From the sequence record NC_029091.1: a stretch of 64,000 bases of DNA. One strand, written 5' to 3'. This DNA is from Escherichia phage APCEc01. The notes under the pieces are model-generated. The model had not been told where the DNA came from, searched no databases, and worked only from the letters and a program-made list of their open reading frames with translations. Shown piece after piece: positions 1,661 through 63,648 of the stretch (within the stretch, counting starts at the first letter, position 1; every line of letters begins with the position of its first letter). Made by a program: the position numbers and the translations under genes.

Positions 1661-2780
1661 TTTTAACCTTAACTGGGTTAACAGGTTCTAACACCATTGA
1701 GTTGGTAAACATGTACAGATGAGTTTGTGAGTTGTTATTTGATAACTCATGAATAACTTCATCTACGTAAAATTCGGATTTGAATTGGTTCTTTTGGTCA
1801 ACAAATATAATTTTAGTAGCAGGCGTTATGTTAAAATTGCCTGTAGTAGTGCATTTAGCATATCCGTCATATTGAGCCATTGTCTGAAGACGACTTGCTT
1901 CTTCAAATCCATTACGATAGGTCATTTCGGAATATCCACCGGATCTTGACACAAGAATAGCATTATCACCATCGCCTGTAACAATAACCGGAATAGATGT
2001 ATCTAAAAATGAATGAGCGAATATCGTGGCGTTTTTAATAGGGTCTCTTGTAAATTGGTTAGCTTTAGTCATCCAGGTGAAATCCCATACTAATGGATAC
2101 TCAAGCTCTTGAATATACTGACCTACAGTATTTGGCTCACCTACAATCATCTTAATGCCTTCCTGACCAATAAGAGTATCGTAGTCAATCATGTTTACGC
2201 CTAAAATATCTTGCCATACGAATACGAACTTATCACTCGCTGTAGCAAGTCCTAATTCTCTGACATATGCCAAATAATCATCAAATGTGCTTGTCCAAGG
2301 GATATCAGGAACATAAGCATTAATAGTGTTTATTGGCGGAGTAATTAACGCACGGTCTTTGTATATGACACCTAACATTTCACGTATAGATTCGCCTGCG
2401 TCCCGGAAGAATGGACGCCCAAATTTAAGGTTCTCTATAGAATGTATTGTTCCAAGCTCAATTGCAATAATATTGTCACCTTTTGAGTCCACAGACACAG
2501 AATAATGTCTACATCCATAAATTCGAGTTCTAACTTGGAGAGGTGTGTTTGAATTTGAAACAGAGATTTGAACTATCTGTCTACCGTCCATTTTAGTGTG
2601 GATGTTTTTAGTGTCATAAAATTGAAGAATCCCTTCATTTCTTCCATATAGCGAATCTCGCATGGTTAAAGTTGTTATTGTTGCCGCGAGTTCAACGTAT
2701 CTATTTTCTTGCCAAGCCGAATAATCTTGGTATAATTTAACGCTTAAGTTAGGATATCCTGGACGTTGGAATACTTTCAT
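1608..2780 (-). CDS. 27: gp27 baseplate hub subunit
   Basis: 390 aa; [16 protein letters not shown]...[21 protein letters not shown] closely matches T4 gp27 as recalled. Confidence 0.9.
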
Positions 2781-3529
2781 TTTTTATGGTCCTTTTCTAC
2801 TAATGTTAAAGCAATACCACGTTCAACAGGAATCATTTGCATAATAGAATCCAATGTGTATTGACTCTTTACTAGTGAATGGTTTATCTGATAGAATGTA
2901 AAAATCTCATCAGGGTTAACTAACAATTTAAAAACCTCTAAGATATCAGTATATGTTTTAACATGTCGTTCACAACAACCTAATCTAAGGGTCAAATTAA
3001 TAGGGTTCATAGAAGCAATAACCTTCTCGAGCGAGTCAATGTCTATTGCTTCTATTACTTGGATTTGGTTCTCTTCAGTCAAATCATTCCATGGGTACCA
3101 TTCGTCATTATAATATATTTCTTTTATGTTTTCACTTATCATTAATGCCTTGTTGTCATAAAACTTTTCAGGGAAAGAAAAACGTATTTTTATACCAGCA
3201 ACATCAAGTTCAGGTTCGACTAGTTCTTTTTGATATATCTCAAATGGTGCAGTTTTTTCTTTAGAGCATTTAGGGCAAGTGAAAATAACGGGAACTTTTG
3301 TTTTGCCTATAGAGCCTGCAAAAACTTGCAGGAATATAAATGGTTGCCATGTTTTAGGATACTCGCCAAAATAATCATCAATCAGATCGGCAATTATTTC
3401 TTTTTGTTCTTGTGGCGAACGATGTTCGATATCATTTCTAACTAGTAAAAAGTCTCTATAATCCGCTACGGTGAACGGCTTGAAACGATGAACACCATCC
3501 GGTAATTTACAACGAATTATATTAGCCAT
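2777..3529 (-). CDS. 51: gp51 baseplate hub assembly catalyst
   Basis: 250 aa, position upstream of 27, size as T4 gp51. Confidence 0.8.
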
Positions 3530-5518: not shown

Positions 5519-5545
5519 TGTTACCTTTTTTGCCTATGGTTTTTG

Positions 5546-5572
5546 GCCCTTCCAAAAAGGTTGGGCCTTTTT
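5546..5572. terminator. bidirectional rho-independent terminator between convergent genes
   Basis: GGCCC...GGGCC hairpin flanked by T-runs on both sides. Confidence 0.6.
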
Positions 5573-5577
5573 TTTAA

Positions 5578-10898: not shown

Positions 10899-12182
10899 TT
10901 ATTCATCAATGATAATTTTTGGTAGCTTAACACCTAATAAAACAGACAAGTCTGAACGTCCTGCCATTTTATCCATGTCCCCGCCATCAATTATTCTCGC
11001 TTCTTTTTCGTCTTTTGCTACTGTGTAAGGATTTGCTGATAAAGCATATCTAACCAATAATCCGATAGACGGTTGCAAACTTTCCGGATCAACTACAACT
11101 TTAAATGCACCGACATGTTCCGGGTCATCTAAATCTACTCCTTCAGTGTATGGAGCATAAAAGATGGACCCTACAATTTCTTTTTCGCCGATATTTTCTA
11201 CAACACCCACAATAACATAATCTAACGGACTGTTGGTATCGCAGTAAAGAGGTAATCCATTTGCCAAGAATCCATAAGCATTTTGTGAAAGATACTTGTC
11301 ATCTTCTGGCTTATGTTTTAACCAACCAGAAGCAGCAAGAATAGCAGCTGCACGAGCTGAGGCTACACAAAACGTTGCAGTATAAGTTGTCTCTTTTTGA
11401 ATGTGTGATACCATTTCACACACCATTCGATATAATGAACGACCTGCTTCTGGAGCGGATGCATAGCTCAAGTCAATAAATCCGGTGTCAGTAATTCCAG
11501 TAACTTTATAACGTTTCGATACAGTAATTAAAGACTGAAGAATATCTTTATTAATTTCATCAGCCATTTCAGTAGCAAGCAAATCTTCTAAGAAGTTAGG
11601 GGCATCAAATCCATTCGCTTCCAAATCTTGCGCTAATTCAACCGTGAGGCCAGTTTTAAGTTTACGAGATTTGACTGAAGTTTGCCATTTATTAATCTGG
11701 AATCTTGCATCAGAAATTTCGCTACCAGAGCTTTCAAATTTGCTTGTTACCGCTGCATCTGAAAATAACCGTACCTTTAAATGAACGACTGCAATCTGAA
11801 GAGCTAATTCTAGATCACTTTCTTGAATATCTGCAAATGGTGTATCTTCTAACACTTTATAGACGATATTATTATATTTGAAAAAATCACCTTTATTTAG
11901 TGTGACTTTTGATTCTTCTGTGAGCTCAGTAATTTTTTCTCGGTCTACATATCCAACTTCGCCAGCATAAGTAGCACCGGTTTTAAATGTGAATTCGTTA
12001 TCTGGGTTAAGATATTTGATACCATAAAAAGCAGCAACAGGTTGATTAGTTCTTTGTGTTGCTACAATGTCAGAATATATTAATTTAGTCGTAGCGCGAG
12101 TCAAAGCAACGAGATTTGGGCGACCAATTGAGTTGCTAGTAGACGTTGTAGATTCACGCAATAATTTTTGGATTTTACTCAT
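10899..12182 (-). CDS. 24: gp24 head vertex protein
   Basis: 427 aa, gp23 paralogue, size equals T4 gp24. Confidence 0.9.
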   Translation of the reverse strand: MSKIQKLLRESTTSTSNSIGRPNLVALTRATTKLIYSDIVATQRTNQPVAAFYGIKYLNPDNEFTFKTGATYAGEVGYVDREKITELTEESKVTLNKGDFFKYNNIVYKVLEDTPFADIQESDLELALQIAVVHLKVRLFSDAAVTSKFESSGSEISDARFQINKWQTSVKSRKLKTGLTVELAQDLEANGFDAPNFLEDLLATEMADEINKDILQSLITVSKRYKVTGITDTGFIDLSYASAPEAGRSLYRMVCEMVSHIQKETTYTATFCVASARAAAILAASGWLKHKPEDDKYLSQNAYGFLANGLPLYCDTNSPLDYVIVGVVENIGEKEIVGSIFYAPYTEGVDLDDPEHVGAFKVVVDPESLQPSIGLLVRYALSANPYTVAKDEKEARIIDGGDMDKMAGRSDLSVLLGVKLPKIIIDE

Positions 12183-12209
12183 TGCATTTTTTCCTTATGT
12201 GATATAGAT

Positions 12210-12217
12210 TATTTATA
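12210..12217 (-). promoter_or_regulatory. late promoter TATAAATA (minus strand) for gene 24
   Basis: plus-strand TATTTATA about 30 nt upstream of gp24 start. Confidence 0.5.
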
Positions 12218-12223
12218 AAGATT

Positions 12224-12253
12224 GTTTACAACGTATTTGGTATGTGATACTAT
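12224..12253 (+). promoter_or_regulatory. T4-type early promoter (GTTTAC -35, 18 nt, TACTAT -10)
   Basis: matches T4 early promoter architecture; the -10 and leader are identical to the copy at 48560. Confidence 0.55.
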
Positions 12254-12289
12254 AGACTTATCAACTACAGAGGAGTAAACAAAATGACT
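12248..12289 (+). repeat. 42-bp promoter/leader/start cassette, identical copy at 48560-48601
   Basis: tactatagacttatcaactacagaggagtaaacaaaatgact read at both loci. Confidence 0.8.
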
Positions 12290-12553
12290 AAAGCACGTTT
12301 CTTACGAGATACTTTAAAAGTTCTGGAAGCTGAAGCAGTTAAGTTAGTAGAAAAATATGGTGCAAAAGTTAATGGTAATGCCTTCAACAAAGTATGGATG
12401 AAAGTTGATTCTGAAGCTCGAGCTAAAGGTTATTGGGCCACTGATAAACTTGCATCATTCAAAAACAAAGACGGTTCTCCGGCATATGTCCAAGAAGGTA
12501 TGCCTAATTGGCAAAATATTTTGAAAACTTACATCGAAATTGCACAGAAATAA
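12284..12553 (+). CDS. hypothetical early protein (89 aa) inserted between late genes 24 and 23
   Basis: ORF with SD GAGGAG and early promoter; opposite strand to flanking late genes. Confidence 0.6.
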   Translation: MTKARFLRDTLKVLEAEAVKLVEKYGAKVNGNAFNKVWMKVDSEARAKGYWATDKLASFKNKDGSPAYVQEGMPNWQNILKTYIEIAQK

Positions 12554-12557
12554 AACC

Positions 12558-12588
12558 AAAAATGGGAGACCGAAGTCTCCCAAAATAA
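12558..12588. terminator. bidirectional terminator between small ORF and gene 23
   Basis: GGGAGAC-cgaa-GTCTCCC hairpin flanked by A/T runs. Confidence 0.65.
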
Positions 12589-12605
12589 GATTTAATCAAT
12601 TAAGA

Positions 12606-14174
12606 TTAGATGCCTTTTACATATACACGGCGGAAGTAAGCGTTCTTACCAAGGCTGTTCAGGATAGATGGCATACCGGACTGGATGCGAGCACCTGGAG
12701 CCTGCAGGGAACTTTCAGCAAACGGGTTAACACCGATACCGTAACGAGTTTTAAAGCCCATTACCGGCTGGAAGTTCTTAGGATCGGAACCACGCAGCGG
12801 GGTAAGTGCAACGTAAGGAGCATAGTAAATACCTGCATCCATTTCGTTAGCGCCTTTGTAACCAACGGTGAAGTAATCCTGTTTAGCATACTGGTCGATG
12901 TATACGCGGTATTTACCACCAAGTACACCGGCAAATACAGACTTAGTAGTGTCGGTATTAAAACCAGAAGCCAGACCCTGTGCAGCGTAAGAAATACCAG
13001 TATCAACTGAAGCCAGTACGTTAACTACGTTACGGGAAGCGATAATGAAGTTACCTTCACCGCGACCGGTTTGACGAGCAATTTCAACTGCTTCTTTATC
13101 AATCTGGAACAACAGAGATTTAAAGCTTTCACCGGCCCAACGAGCACCACGGATATCAATCGGGTCCTGGAAGTCAAATACACCAGCTTTAGAACCCGGA
13201 GTCAGGGTCATACCAGATTTACCAACCTGTGCAGAGTAGTTAATCCAATCAACAACTTCACGGTTGATTTCTAGCATAATTTCTGTAGCCAGAATACCGC
13301 TCAATTCAGCATCAGCATCCATACCGTGTACTGCACGGAGGTCTTGTGCTAATTCGATAGAGTAAGCAGCTTTCAGCTGGCGAGATTTAGCTTCGATAAC
13401 TTGTTTATCGATACGGAAGCCCATTTCATTCCATGGGTTATCGGTAGAACCGTTGAAACCTTCCTGGAGTTCAGCGATAGAAGTAGCCATACCTTCAGCG
13501 ATTTCTACCAGTGCACCAGCTTCCATTTGTTTCTTAACTTCTGCATCTAATTTAGCTGCATCAGTTGCACCAGAATCAAGTGTTACGACAGCAGAAGCTT
13601 GCAGATATACAGTACCAGTTTCTTGGAAGAAGTGAGTATAGATATCACCTACAACAGTAGTAGTGCCAGCAGCCAGAGCTGGGAATTTCTTAGCAGCACC
13701 CTGACCAGAGAACATCGCATCTGGAGCATACATCGGATGGAAAGCTTCTTTAGCGCCAGCAGCGATAGGGTCTTTACCATATACTGCACGGAGAGCAAAT
13801 ACCTGACCGGTCGGGCTGTTCATAGGCTGAACACCACAAATATCAAAAGCGATCAGATTAGGAATAGCACGACGAACCATACCCATAACTGCCGGCCCAA
13901 TTTGGGTTACTGCACCAGAGGTTTGACCCGCTGCGATGTTCTGAGCATTATAACCATGGTCACCACCAATTTCAGCTTCGGTCAAGAAAGAACCAAATGC
14001 CTGAGCGATTTTCTCGTCTTTATATTCAGGGGATACTTCGAAATCTTTTTCCTGGTTTTCGAAGATTTTAGCGATAATAGCCTGCTTGCTGTTAGCGATT
14101 TCCGGCAGGCCTTCACCTTCCAGCAGTTCTTTCCATTTGTCTACGAGCTGAGCTTTAGTTTTGATAGTAGTCAT
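12606..14174 (-). CDS. 23: gp23 major capsid protein
   Basis: 522 aa; near identical to T4 gp23 as recalled over almost the whole length. Confidence 0.97.
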   Translation of the reverse strand: MTTIKTKAQLVDKWKELLEGEGLPEIANSKQAIIAKIFENQEKDFEVSPEYKDEKIAQAFGSFLTEAEIGGDHGYNAQNIAAGQTSGAVTQIGPAVMGMVRRAIPNLIAFDICGVQPMNSPTGQVFALRAVYGKDPIAAGAKEAFHPMYAPDAMFSGQGAAKKFPALAAGTTTVVGDIYTHFFQETGTVYLQASAVVTLDSGATDAAKLDAEVKKQMEAGALVEIAEGMATSIAELQEGFNGSTDNPWNEMGFRIDKQVIEAKSRQLKAAYSIELAQDLRAVHGMDADAELSGILATEIMLEINREVVDWINYSAQVGKSGMTLTPGSKAGVFDFQDPIDIRGARWAGESFKSLLFQIDKEAVEIARQTGRGEGNFIIASRNVVNVLASVDTGISYAAQGLASGFNTDTTKSVFAGVLGGKYRVYIDQYAKQDYFTVGYKGANEMDAGIYYAPYVALTPLRGSDPKNFQPVMGFKTRYGIGVNPFAESSLQAPGARIQSGMPSILNSLGKNAYFRRVYVKGI

Positions 14175-31931: not shown

Positions 31932-31970
31932 TATTTATAGATACAAAAATGGGAGCCCGAAGGCTCCCTA
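31932..31970 (-). promoter_or_regulatory. late promoter TATAAATA (minus strand) for gene 9 plus GGGAGCC-cgaa-GGCTCCC hairpin after gene 8
   Basis: plus-strand TATTTATA and adjacent perfect hairpin in the 8/9 intergenic region. Confidence 0.5.
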
Positions 31971-31971
31971 A

Positions 31972-32976
31972 TTAAAACATAAACAAAATGTTAATTTCTT
32001 CTGTTTGGTCCATTGCCATAATAACAGGTGGTCGGTTTTCCATATAAATCATTTCACCGGAATGATGTTGCAGGTCTCTAGGGTCGTAATAATCCTTTTC
32101 TGCTTTAACATTAGGGTCATTTGGATTTTTCTTAGCTTCTAACGGGTTTGCGATAATTGATATCTGTCTAAAACCCTTGTTACCAGGCAAAGCTGCCTCA
32201 GGGAAATAAACAGAATCAAAATATGCTTTAAACCGCATCGTATTAGCTTTAACACGGTAAATCAAACCGTAGTCATCTTGTTGCCAAGTTAAGTTATTTT
32301 CATATCCCCAACGGGTGGGGTCTTCTTTAATTTCTTCCGGCCATGGAACTACAAGATATTCGTTAGTGCAACGGTTAATTGACACATCGGCAGGAATCTC
32401 ATAAAGATATTCCCAAATATATCCATCACCGGTTTCGATAACCCCATTAGCATCGCCTCTGCCTTCAGGAGGAGACATAGAACGAACAGACGGAGTCCAT
32501 TTACCACCCAATTTAAGACATTCATCTTTATTATCTAAAGATTCTATTGAACAGAGCCCTACGTCAGGGACATCTAAACAACGGTAAATTAACCAACCAG
32601 CTCCAACTTCTGTCGCGTTGTACGGAGCAGTATTACATGCGACTATATCGTTAATTCTAAACGTGTAAGGGTCTGGATATCGCACATCTCCCCAATCACG
32701 TCTAGGAATAACAGAATCTAACATTGAAGGTAAAACTTTAACGGTGCCCATCATATGGGTCCACATATCAGTAACACCAAGAACAGAATCTGTAGGATAA
32801 GGTGGGGCGAAGCCCACCTCATTTTCATTTGACGCCCAAGGCTCTGAACGTCCAAACGTAATATAAATGGAGTTCTTATCATCTCCATCCCCAACTGAAT
32901 TATAAAAATTCAGCATTTTCTCTGTTCTAAATTTTGATGTAACTATTGCACGATAGATAACACTTGAATCATTCAT
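31972..32976 (-). CDS. 8: gp8 baseplate wedge subunit
   Basis: 334 aa, equal to T4 gp8. Confidence 0.85.
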   Translation of the reverse strand: MNDSSVIYRAIVTSKFRTEKMLNFYNSVGDGDDKNSIYITFGRSEPWASNENEVGFAPPYPTDSVLGVTDMWTHMMGTVKVLPSMLDSVIPRRDWGDVRYPDPYTFRINDIVACNTAPYNATEVGAGWLIYRCLDVPDVGLCSIESLDNKDECLKLGGKWTPSVRSMSPPEGRGDANGVIETGDGYIWEYLYEIPADVSINRCTNEYLVVPWPEEIKEDPTRWGYENNLTWQQDDYGLIYRVKANTMRFKAYFDSVYFPEAALPGNKGFRQISIIANPLEAKKNPNDPNVKAEKDYYDPRDLQHHSGEMIYMENRPPVIMAMDQTEEINILFMF

Positions 32977-44746: not shown

Positions 44747-45034
44747 ATGAAATCCTATAAAGAATTTATATCACCTTTTGCTAACGTTTCTACTCTGACC
44801 GAAGCAACCCTTACTTCCGAAGTTATTAAAGCAAATAAAGGACGTGAGGGTAAACCAATGATTAGCCTGGTTGACGGCGAAGAAGTAAAAGGTACTGTTT
44901 ACTTAGGGGATGGATGGTCTGCTAAGAAAGACGGCGCTACTATTGTTATCTCTCCGGCCGAAGAGACTGCACTGTTTAAAGCTAAGCATATTTCTGTAGC
45001 TCAGCTTAAAATTATTGCAAAAACTCTTCTGTAA
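44747..45034 (+). CDS. ipI: internal protein I-like, capsid targeting sequence MKSYKEFI
   Basis: 95 aa (T4 IpI size), N-terminal CTS resembling T4 consensus MKTYQEFIAE, position next to 57B. Confidence 0.6.
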   Translation: MKSYKEFISPFANVSTLTEATLTSEVIKANKGREGKPMISLVDGEEVKGTVYLGDGWSAKKDGATIVISPAEETALFKAKHISVAQLKIIAKTLL

Positions 45035-45037
45035 GTA

Positions 45038-45086
45038 GTTTACATGCTGATAGGACTATGTTATAGTAGTCCTATCAAAACAAATG
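45038..45086 (+). promoter_or_regulatory. early promoter embedded in stem-loop (PeSL-like cassette, copy A)
   Basis: GTTTAC, 17 nt, TTATAG inside 9-bp inverted repeat ATAGGACTA/TAGTCCTAT; near-identical copies at 51859 and 53423. Confidence 0.6.
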
Positions 45087-45104
45087 AGTAAATGGAGAAA
45101 TAAA

Positions 45105-47064: not shown

Positions 47065-47372
47065 CCGGGTCGCTACCGGCAAGTCGTCGGACTGATGTTC
47101 CCTGAGTAAGGACTGGTCTTAATAAATCTTTACGATTTGTTAATATCCCCTTACATCACAGCAGAAACGGCGCACAGAATTATCGATTCGAGGAAATATC
47201 TTTGTCGTAAGCCGAGTAGCGTTTTTGACGGAACGTTCGGATATGGTCGAGATATGGCCTTTTAAAAATATTGAGTAGCGTCAACTGCTTAATAACCGGG
47301 TTCGAATCCCGGCGTTTCGTACAAACACTTGCCTTAGCAGGTGGAACCCCGACAAGGTTGCCGCAAGGCTTA
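47065..47372 (+). ncRNA. putative small stable RNA region (position of T4 rnaC/rnaD species 1 and 2 RNAs)
   Basis: about 300 nt with no plausible plus-strand ORF, tRNA-like T-arm CCGGG-TTCGAAT-CCCGG at about 47287, ends at a terminator. Confidence 0.3.
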
Positions 47373-47400
47373 GCCCCTTCCGAAAGGTCGGGGCTTTTTG
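47373..47400 (+). terminator. rho-independent terminator
   Basis: GCCCCttccgaaaggtcGGGGC followed by TTTTTGG; same motif family as 47916 and 63611. Confidence 0.6.
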
Positions 47401-47444
47401 GCATAATAATAAATAGATAAGTTAATTAACTTAGGAAAAGCAAC

Positions 47445-47909: not shown

Positions 47910-47915
47910 TAGAAT

Positions 47916-47944
47916 GCCCCTTCCTTATGGTTGGGGCCTTTTGG
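47916..47944 (+). terminator. rho-independent terminator
   Basis: GCCCCttccttatggttGGGGC then CTTTTGG. Confidence 0.6.
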
Positions 47945-47975
47945 TATCTAGGGCATAAAAATATTTCATAAAGAT

Positions 47976-48536: not shown

Positions 48537-48537
48537 T

Positions 48538-48565
48538 GTACAAACGCCAAGGATGGTGGTACTAT
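48538..48565 (+). promoter_or_regulatory. early promoter (TGTACA -35-like, TACTAT -10)
   Basis: -10 and leader identical to cassette at 12248. Confidence 0.5.
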
Positions 48566-48601
48566 AGACTTATCAACTACAGAGGAGTAAACAAAATGAC
48601 T
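48560..48601 (+). repeat. 42-bp promoter/leader/start cassette, second copy
   Basis: identical to 12248-12289. Confidence 0.8.
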
Positions 48602-48760
48602 ACTTTAATTATTTGGTTCGATGAAAATGAAGAAACATACTGTGTGAATATTGGTGAAAGTCCAATGCCTGAATTTGAATCCTCGGATAAAAACTCTGTT
48701 GTATCTTGGGCTGAAGGTTATAAAGCAGCTAAAGGTGACGTTGAAATAATTTACATCTAA
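48596..48760 (+). CDS. hypothetical small protein (54 aa), not in ORF track
   Basis: ATG preceded by SD GAGGAG from the cassette; MTTLIIWFDENEETYCVNIG... Confidence 0.45.
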   Translation: MTTLIIWFDENEETYCVNIGESPMPEFESSDKNSVVSWAEGYKAAKGDVEIIYI

Positions 48761-51645: not shown

Positions 51646-51843
51646 ATGTCTCGTGAATTAGATTGTGCTGTACGTACGGCAGTAGCTGCTCTGGAAAACC
51701 TGTTCCAAATTGCAACAGAAGAACGCGAAGAAGTTACATTATGGATTGAAGATAACGCAGGTCTGAATCTCCAGGACGCGATCTCATTATCCCACAATAG
51801 TATCACTGTTCAAGGCTGGGTATCATCTAGTTATTCTTGCTAA
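51646..51843 (+). CDS. hypothetical protein, GWVSSS-x-x-C family, member 3 (65 aa)
   Basis: ends ...QGWVSSSYSC; SD AAGGAA. Confidence 0.5.
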   Translation: MSRELDCAVRTAVAALENLFQIATEEREEVTLWIEDNAGLNLQDAISLSHNSITVQGWVSSSYSC

Positions 51844-51847
51844 AACA

Positions 51848-51896
51848 GTTTACAACAAGATAGGGCTATGTTATAGTAGTCCTATCAAAACAAATG
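51848..51896 (+). promoter_or_regulatory. early promoter in stem-loop (PeSL-like cassette, copy B)
   Basis: GTTTAC, 17 nt, TTATAG; gatagggctatgttatagtagtcctatcaaaacaaatg. Confidence 0.6.
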
Positions 51897-51905
51897 GAGT
51901 CCACA

Positions 51906-53210: not shown

Positions 53211-53411
53211 ATGACTACTTTGAATAAACGTTTCGGTAAAGCTAAACCTGGTTGTGCAGCAGAACGTCGTTATGTTTTCGCTCAGTTAGAAGATGTAGAG
53301 TATCAGATTAATCAAGTTCACATTACTGGCATCGAGCCTATGTGTGGCCTTGAAGCTCTTCGTGAAGTTCGTGATGGGTATCGTCGTGACATCGAAGAAA
53401 TGTCAAAATAA
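53211..53411 (+). CDS. hypothetical small protein (66 aa)
   Basis: ATG after SD GGAG; MTTLNKRFGKAKPGCAAERRY... Confidence 0.45.
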   Translation: MTTLNKRFGKAKPGCAAERRYVFAQLEDVEYQINQVHITGIEPMCGLEALREVRDGYRRDIEEMSK

Positions 53412-53412
53412 G

Positions 53413-53455
53413 TGTACAAACTGATAGGACTATGTTATAGTAGTCCTATTAAAAC
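53413..53455 (+). promoter_or_regulatory. early promoter in stem-loop (PeSL-like cassette, copy C)
   Basis: gataggactatgttatagtagtcctattaaaac, nearly identical to copies A and B. Confidence 0.55.
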
Positions 53456-53469
53456 ATGAGGAGAATATT

Positions 53470-63603: not shown

Positions 63604-63610
63604 TTTACTA

Positions 63611-63638
63611 GCCCCTTCCGAAAGGTTGGGGCTTTTTG
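63611..63638 (+). terminator. rho-independent terminator after rI
   Basis: GCCCCttccgaaaggttGGGGC followed by TTTTTGG. Confidence 0.6.
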
Positions 63639-63648
63639 GCATCTATCA

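Follow-up and report, generated by a model that had tools for sequence, protein, structure and literature searches.

A putative antisense early module between capsid genes 23 and 24 of an RB69-like phage and its shared promoter/leader patch

The 64,000-nt stretch of Escherichia phage APCEc01 (NC_029091.1) analysed here, hereafter the window, belongs to an RB69-like T-even phage of the genus Mosigvirus. Between its capsid genes 24 and 23 lies what its sequence suggests is a one-gene early transcription unit, placed antisense within the late capsid operon of Mosigvirus. We consider it probable that an old antisense early module came to occupy a once-empty slot, that a short promoter/leader patch was later exchanged within Mosigvirus, and that segD was added downstream. 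The order of these events (an originally empty slot versus loss in Tequatrovirus, and small ORF versus segD first) is proposed by parsimony from a handful of genera. The locus is a case of ordinary, well-documented phage mosaicism and its anatomy is already present in public annotation. The record of phage vB_EcoM_SA35RD, whose intergenic sequence is identical, marks the late promoter, the early promoter, the ORF and the terminators.

Anatomy of the slot between genes 24 and 23

Shigella phages JK36 and JK42 and Escherichia phage SCS57 have the same sequence as positions 12150-12650 (100% identity), and about 100 further records reach at least 99%. The slot is bounded on the left by gene 24 for the capsid vertex protein (10899-12182, minus strand; ORF list, and gp24 in identical public records) and on the right by gene 23 for the major capsid protein (12606-14174, minus strand; ORF list and annotated public records). 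The intergenic region measures 423 bp and holds, from left to right, the late promoter P24 of gene 24, an early promoter, a leader with a Shine-Dalgarno sequence, an ORF and a hairpin. An earlier reading of this DNA, made from the sequence only, had described a plus-strand 89-aa ORF between convergent minus-strand capsid genes. The ORF list confirms the ORF (12284-12553, plus strand), but genes 23 and 24 are co-directional, both on the minus strand, and the ORF is antisense to both. Of the ORFs in the window slot that reach 40 aa, this one alone is conserved in relatives or has a match to a protein family. The ORF list gives no GIY-YIG ORF in the slot, and the window carries the segD-free allele.

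The T4-type late promoter of gene 24 was read directly from the sequence as TATAAATA (TATTTATA on the plus strand; 12210-12217, minus strand). It is kept in every lineage compared, empty slots included, and is also annotated in the identical region of SA35RD. Back-to-back with it, six bases apart, stands a T4-type early (sigma-70) promoter (12225-12253, plus strand), which scored 9/12 with TG in a consensus scan and is annotated in SA35RD as well. It consists of a -35 element TTTACA (12225-12230), a 17-nt spacer and a TG-extended -10 element TACTAT (12248-12253), from which promoter activity and early timing are predicted. The late promoter P24 probably doubles as the A/T-rich upstream region of this early promoter. 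A Shine-Dalgarno sequence, GAGGAG (12270-12275, plus strand), was read 8 nt 5' of the ATG, and folding of the shared leader gave no stabilising RNA structure, the leader being unstructured. With this arrangement, host RNA polymerase would transcribe the 89-aa ORF directly after infection, and the intergenic region would later be used the opposite way for genes 23 and 24.

A GC-rich hairpin, GGGAGAC-CGAA-GUCUCCC (12563-12582), was detected by terminator scan and folding. The sequence-only reading called it a bidirectional terminator, which holds insofar as either strand can fold into the hairpin (-13.5 and -16.1 kcal/mol). On the minus strand, however, it has a C(UUCG)G loop and is followed by a U-run (UUUUUGGUUU), making it the intrinsic terminator of gene 23, whereas the plus strand beyond the hairpin reads AAAAUAAGAUUU, without a U-run. 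The terminator scan called the minus strand only; one public record marks both strands. The hairpin is kept in occupied and empty slots alike. It is thus primarily the terminator of gene 23, and the plus-strand transcript has no canonical terminator. With its flanks (12550-12599), the hairpin is 78% like a second late-region hairpin at 31937-31986.

The 89-aa protein and the states of the slot

The ORF had been regarded as novel, but a database search with the protein showed that it is already known as RB69ORF188c or phrog_6003. The phrog_6003 match is full-length (E=2.1e-45, residues 1-89 against profile positions 1-90 of 90), and the PhAPEC2 record annotates the ORF as similar to RB69ORF188c. 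With tblastn, the ORF was found in 238 phage records, about half of them with at least 80% identity (Mosigvirus) and about half with 30-38%; the window protein is 98-100% identical to that in many Mosigvirus records. In RB69 and PhAPEC2 the homologues are found in the 23-24 interval, antisense to both capsid genes, and the divergent homologues orf173 of JS98 (Dhakavirus) and ORF190c of VR7 (Gaprivervirus) have the same place and orientation. RB69ORF188c, JS98 orf173 and VR7ORF190c, all hypothetical proteins of phrog_6003, therefore share family and position with the window ORF. Metagenomic homologues between genes 24 and 23 show 71% (P0004), 70% (P0005), 61% (P0006) and 34% (P0016) identity; one source names P0006 'NADPH-dependent curcumin reductase CurA', an apparent annotation slip. 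Unlike in the window, the ORF in the RB69 reference record (NC_004928; L013 3792-4032) is interrupted: clustered substitutions and indels break it into RB69ORF188c and RB69ORF189c, the cause being either sequencing errors of an older date or decay to a pseudogene. The copy of phage mogra is split as well (P0007).

An alignment of homologues at 30-70% identity shows conserved residues throughout, and the AlphaFold model (pLDDT 89) predicts three helices and a beta-hairpin. The conserved full-length family and the confident model indicate that this is a real protein. Distant homologues at about 35% identity were found with an hhalign probability above 99% (P0021, P0023 and a protein of Acinetobacter phage ABPH49, Vequintavirinae). 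One neighbours a GpJ-type tail gene, another stands among a series of small ORFs, and the third belongs to ABPH49; such different phage contexts suggest that the gene is a mobile accessory gene on long time scales. Two further candidates from an exhaustive HMMER search, the giant Big_2/Ig-repeat proteins P0022 and P0024, were rejected as spurious: their scores add up many weak repeats, and their domains are all-beta as opposed to the helical model. In Pfam, DUF4859 stayed below the gathering threshold (17.9 bits against a cut-off of 22.6, E=0.0029). The NCBIfam search with the 89-aa protein returned no match, the fold search with its model returned no informative match, and a literature search for JS98 orf173 found nothing. 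Our best guess is that the product is a non-essential early accessory protein of the host-takeover or anti-defence type.

Comparison across T4-type phages agrees with the earlier suggestion that the 23-24 slot is a hotspot, which is found empty, with the ORF, with the ORF and segD, or with segD alone. The empty slot of most Tequatrovirus phages (e.g., RB14) is about 83 bp long and contains the late promoter and the hairpin, without an early promoter. Empty slots without an early promoter are also present in Jiaodavirus, Karamvirus, Acinetobacter phage Acj61 and Enterobacter phage HK6; the gp24 of HK6 is labelled 'homing endonuclease', another apparent annotation slip. The gene segD alone is found in T4, T6 and about 50 other records. 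Its presence in the T4 slot, as stated in the earlier reading, was confirmed, on the strand opposite to genes 23/24. In 38 records, including that of JK45, the slot holds a small ORF of JS98 type and, behind it on the same strand, a segD-like gene. In Aeromonas phage 44RR2.8t.2 (L025 325-1489) the slot contains two ORFs of 95 and 288 aa on the capsid-gene strand, unrelated to the small ORF and to segD. JS98 (L001), VR7 (L002) and the phages of loci L015 and L021, which represent Dhakavirus, Gaprivervirus and related metagenomic phages, carry tandem gene 24 copies (24a and 24b) beside the slot; the window has one.

Genes 24 and 23 of JK45 are about 100% identical to those of the window except for the slot and the last approximately 35 nt of gene 23. 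These are replaced by a tract with the JS98-type ORF and segD, and the end of gene 23 is T4-like. The assignment of JK45 to Tequatrovirus is apparently a further annotation slip, given that its genes 23/24 are identical to those of Mosigvirus. LF82-2 is identical to the window through GAGGAG (12275) and JS98-type beyond, placing the crossover inside the Shine-Dalgarno sequence; in the same collection, LF82-41 carries the allele that lacks segD. The slot tracts extend over 1898-2987 in JK45 (L010) and 2001-3087 in LF82-2 (L009), on a Mosigvirus backbone. Judged from these mosaics, the tracts with the JS98-type ORF and segD would fit homing-endonuclease co-conversion with variable tract ends. 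There are hints of a SegD target or immunity polymorphism near the last approximately 35 nt of gene 23. It is more likely that segD is a later add-on downstream of the ORF than a replaced ancestral occupant.

In T4, segD is preceded by TTTACA-N17-TATTAT with TG (10/12; NC_000866, approximately 107253-107281; L005 3754-3782, minus strand). The position of this candidate promoter is homologous to that of the small-ORF early promoter of other T-even phages. Bioinformatic searches had found no segD-specific promoter (Edgell et al. 2010 review, PMC2988022), and our literature search for segD transcript data found nothing. The small ORF and segD could be a functional pair, in which the early unit provides a promoter and landing site, and the ORF product or an antisense transcript into the 3' end of gene 23 modulates SegD or the expression of genes 23/24. 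We regard this as quite unlikely; if it were true, T4 segD would be driven by the TTTACA-N17-TATTAT promoter at approximately 107281-107253.

The shared promoter/leader patch and its history

An identity of 42 bp between 12248-12289 and 48560-48601 had been reported in the sequence-only reading. It is real, but its true length is 43 bp (12248-12290 = 48560-48602, both on the plus strand). The repeat extends from the first base of the -10 element through the leader, the Shine-Dalgarno sequence, the ATG and codon 2 to the first base of codon 3, and a comparison extended to 12244-12290 gave 46/47 matches with the second site. The second copy is part of an early promoter at 48537-48565 (plus strand; -35 TGTACA, 17-nt spacer, -10 TACTAT) in the e.8-e.6 accessory region, and it is predicted to drive a 54-aa ORF (RB69ORF145c, phrog_5461; 48596-48760, plus strand). 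Homology between related phages breaks there at approximately 48519 and 48602, which are the two ends of the promoter/leader cassette, and the upstream or downstream genes differ in PhAPEC2, AV112 and others. This e-site has its -35, spacer, -10 and TAGACTTATCAA in common with the orthologous site of Tequatrovirus RB14, whereas the remaining leader differs, its 3' part CTACAGAGGAGTAAACAAA missing from the RB14 site. The proposal that early cassettes mark recombination junctions is supported by PhAPEC2, AV112 and RB14 at the 48560 site and by the crossover in LF82-2.

The similarity of the two copies is exceptional among the early cassettes of the phage. When all pairs of the 13 early promoter/leader cassettes in the window were compared, the longest shared run was 43 nt (the slot and 48560), the next 25 and the median 7, showing that the two copies are far more alike than membership of a promoter family explains. 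The 43-mer is found only in Mosigvirus-type phages, at 223 places in 140 records. The slot copy of RB69 has three substitutions relative to its other copy, which indicates that exact identity is not functionally required.

Other early cassettes of the window have repeated features of their own. The early promoters at 45033-45088, 51843-51898 and 53407-53462 possess a 10-bp inverted repeat (GATAGGACTA ... TAGTCCTATC) bracketing the -10 element, which puts a stem-loop inside the promoter, not beside it. Six small early ORFs, at 44747, 47445, 56155, 56916, 57240 and 57580, start with Met-Lys-(Ser/Thr/Met)-Tyr-x-Glu-Phe (ATGAAAnCnTAT..GAATTT), and this shared start suggests a paralogous family or a common N-terminal module.

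The sequences upstream of the ORF reveal which part of the slot was exchanged. A left junction, TATTTATAAAG..(G/A)TTTAC, is common to all occupied slots, T4 included, and the homologous slots that bear the ORF share TATTTATAAAG..GTTTAC, but their -10/leader sequences differ. A -35 and late-promoter junction shared by all occupied slots implies that the promoter is old in the slot; the -10-to-ATG patch alone is specific to Mosigvirus. In the closest relatives of the ORF (P0004, P0005 and P0006), the -10-to-ATG segment reads TTATTATGCTT... and is unrelated to the cassette. It is TACTATAGACCTATCAAAACATGAGGAG in JS98 and JK45, and VR7 and T4 have yet other sequences. The likeness between the JS98-type upstream region and the cassette goes no further than their common early-promoter family. 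By this comparison, the ORF is older in the slot than the shared patch, which most likely replaced the slot's own -10/leader and not the ORF.

This bears on the claim that the content of the slot had been replaced through the shared cassette, i.e., that the 89-aa ORF came in by recombination through it and displaced, for instance, segD. Several facts speak for this idea: the 43-bp identity stops just within the ORF, replacements at the 48560 site and in LF82-2 have their junctions at the cassette edges, segD occupies the slot in T4, and distant homologues in other phage types show the gene to be mobile over long times. Nevertheless, it is unlikely. Homologues of 30-71% identity occupy the same slot, the closest of them (61-71%) and those at 30-37% alike with an unrelated -10/leader, and the ORF predates the patch. 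Moreover, every occupied slot has the -35 and late-promoter junction, phages with both genes carry segD downstream of the ORF, and the 43-mer is present at these two sites only and in Mosigvirus only. The earlier reading had itself named occurrence of the ORF at this position in most T4-like phages, without identity to the cassette, as evidence against replacement, and this is largely what we find in three genera and in metagenomic relatives.

The identity could also reflect selection for one optimal promoter and 5'UTR, for example by a co-regulator that recognises the leader, instead of recombination. The strong shared early consensus (TACTATAGACyTATCAA, GAGGAG, AAAATGACT) and the unstructured leader, as expected for efficient initiation, agree with such selection, but it is very unlikely as the explanation: the eleven other early cassettes of the window share at most 25 nt among themselves, the RB69 slot copy tolerates its substitutions, orthologous sites in other genera have different leaders, and convergence to 43/43 identical bases is implausible without copying. 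That the similarity arose by chance, or that the ORF is a non-coding artefact, might be considered for an ORF of only 89 aa in an A/T-rich genome, but the probability is practically negligible. None of 100 dinucleotide-preserving shuffles of the window gave a match of the repeat, and the full-length PHROG match (E=2e-45), the residues conserved across homologues of 30-70% identity and the confident structure model (pLDDT 89) refute the artefact.

The identity is thus most likely the footprint of recombination over a short patch, or of gene conversion, in which two cassettes of one subfamily took part within Mosigvirus. As to its direction, the balance tips slightly toward transfer from the e.8-e.6 site into the slot over the reverse. 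Polarity had also been sought in codon 2 (ACT versus AAC in JS98 and VR7), but this argument was dropped, as P0004 and the distant homologue P0023 also start with Met-Thr-Lys; codon-2 ACT is native to the ORF family.

According to the preferred account, the slot would originally have been empty; a module of early promoter and small ORF would have entered it long ago, between the late promoter and the terminator of gene 23, and would then have diverged in place. The module would also have been the landing place of segD, inserted downstream of the ORF, with T4 keeping promoter and segD only. In the Mosigvirus lineage, a short patch from one cassette would have been copied into the other, replacing the -10/leader, and the same cassettes act as crossover points for module exchange.

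Comparison with known systems

Repeated early promoter cassettes shuffle small non-essential ORFs in T4-type phages, and within core regions cassettes of the PeSL (promoter-early stem-loop) type accompany plastic non-essential genes (Arbiol 2010, PMC2839356; Comeau 2014, PMC4122927; Repoila et al. 1994, as cited in these papers). The locus resembles PeSLs in having repeated early cassettes next to small non-essential ORFs. The cassette edges, with two exact copies, are also junctions of insertion, deletion and replacement between related phages, as for PeSLs. Furthermore, the early promoter of the slot matches the published T4/PST-type consensus TTTACW-N17-TAYWAT (Comeau 2014, PMC4122927) that belongs to the PeSL description.

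The locus also differs from PeSLs. The slot copy has no upstream stem-loop: a scan of 12000-12800 found only the hairpin 3' of the ORF, the sequence upstream of the slot -35 being TATTTATA and the start of gene 24, and the 48537 copy also lacks a strong upstream hairpin. Because the upstream stem-loop is absent, we call the element a PeSL-like early promoter/leader cassette and not a PeSL proper. What the two sites share is not a terminator and a promoter but a patch that starts at the -10, spans the leader and enters the ORF, and the exchange appears to have involved this patch and not the cargo. In addition, the copies lie 36 kb apart across essential genes, so that excision of a mini-circle between them would be lethal. 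Near-identical GC-rich terminator hairpins stand elsewhere in the window, at 47371-47404, 47914-47947 and 63609-63642, and also at 5544-5577; those at 47371 and 63609 are 97% identical. Early promoters come within a few bases after these hairpins, which gives them the look of true terminator and promoter modules of PeSL type in the accessory region.

No new kind of element is shown by this locus, and its value is illustrative and not surprising. It is a clean, well-populated example of how T-even phages remodel a core structural operon, illustrating module insertion between a late promoter and a terminator, short promoter/leader patch exchange, and a homing endonuclease that rides on the module and probably drags flanking sequence along. 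It also provides a concrete candidate promoter for T4 segD.

Another close known system is T4 segD, a free-standing GIY-YIG homing endonuclease gene (PMC2988022). The window differs from T4 in having no endonuclease gene, and the 89-aa protein is unrelated to SegD. Both genes nevertheless occupy the same slot in antisense orientation, with a homologous left junction and an early-type promoter, and the two are linked by the 38 public genomes in which segD stands directly downstream of a homologue of the ORF.
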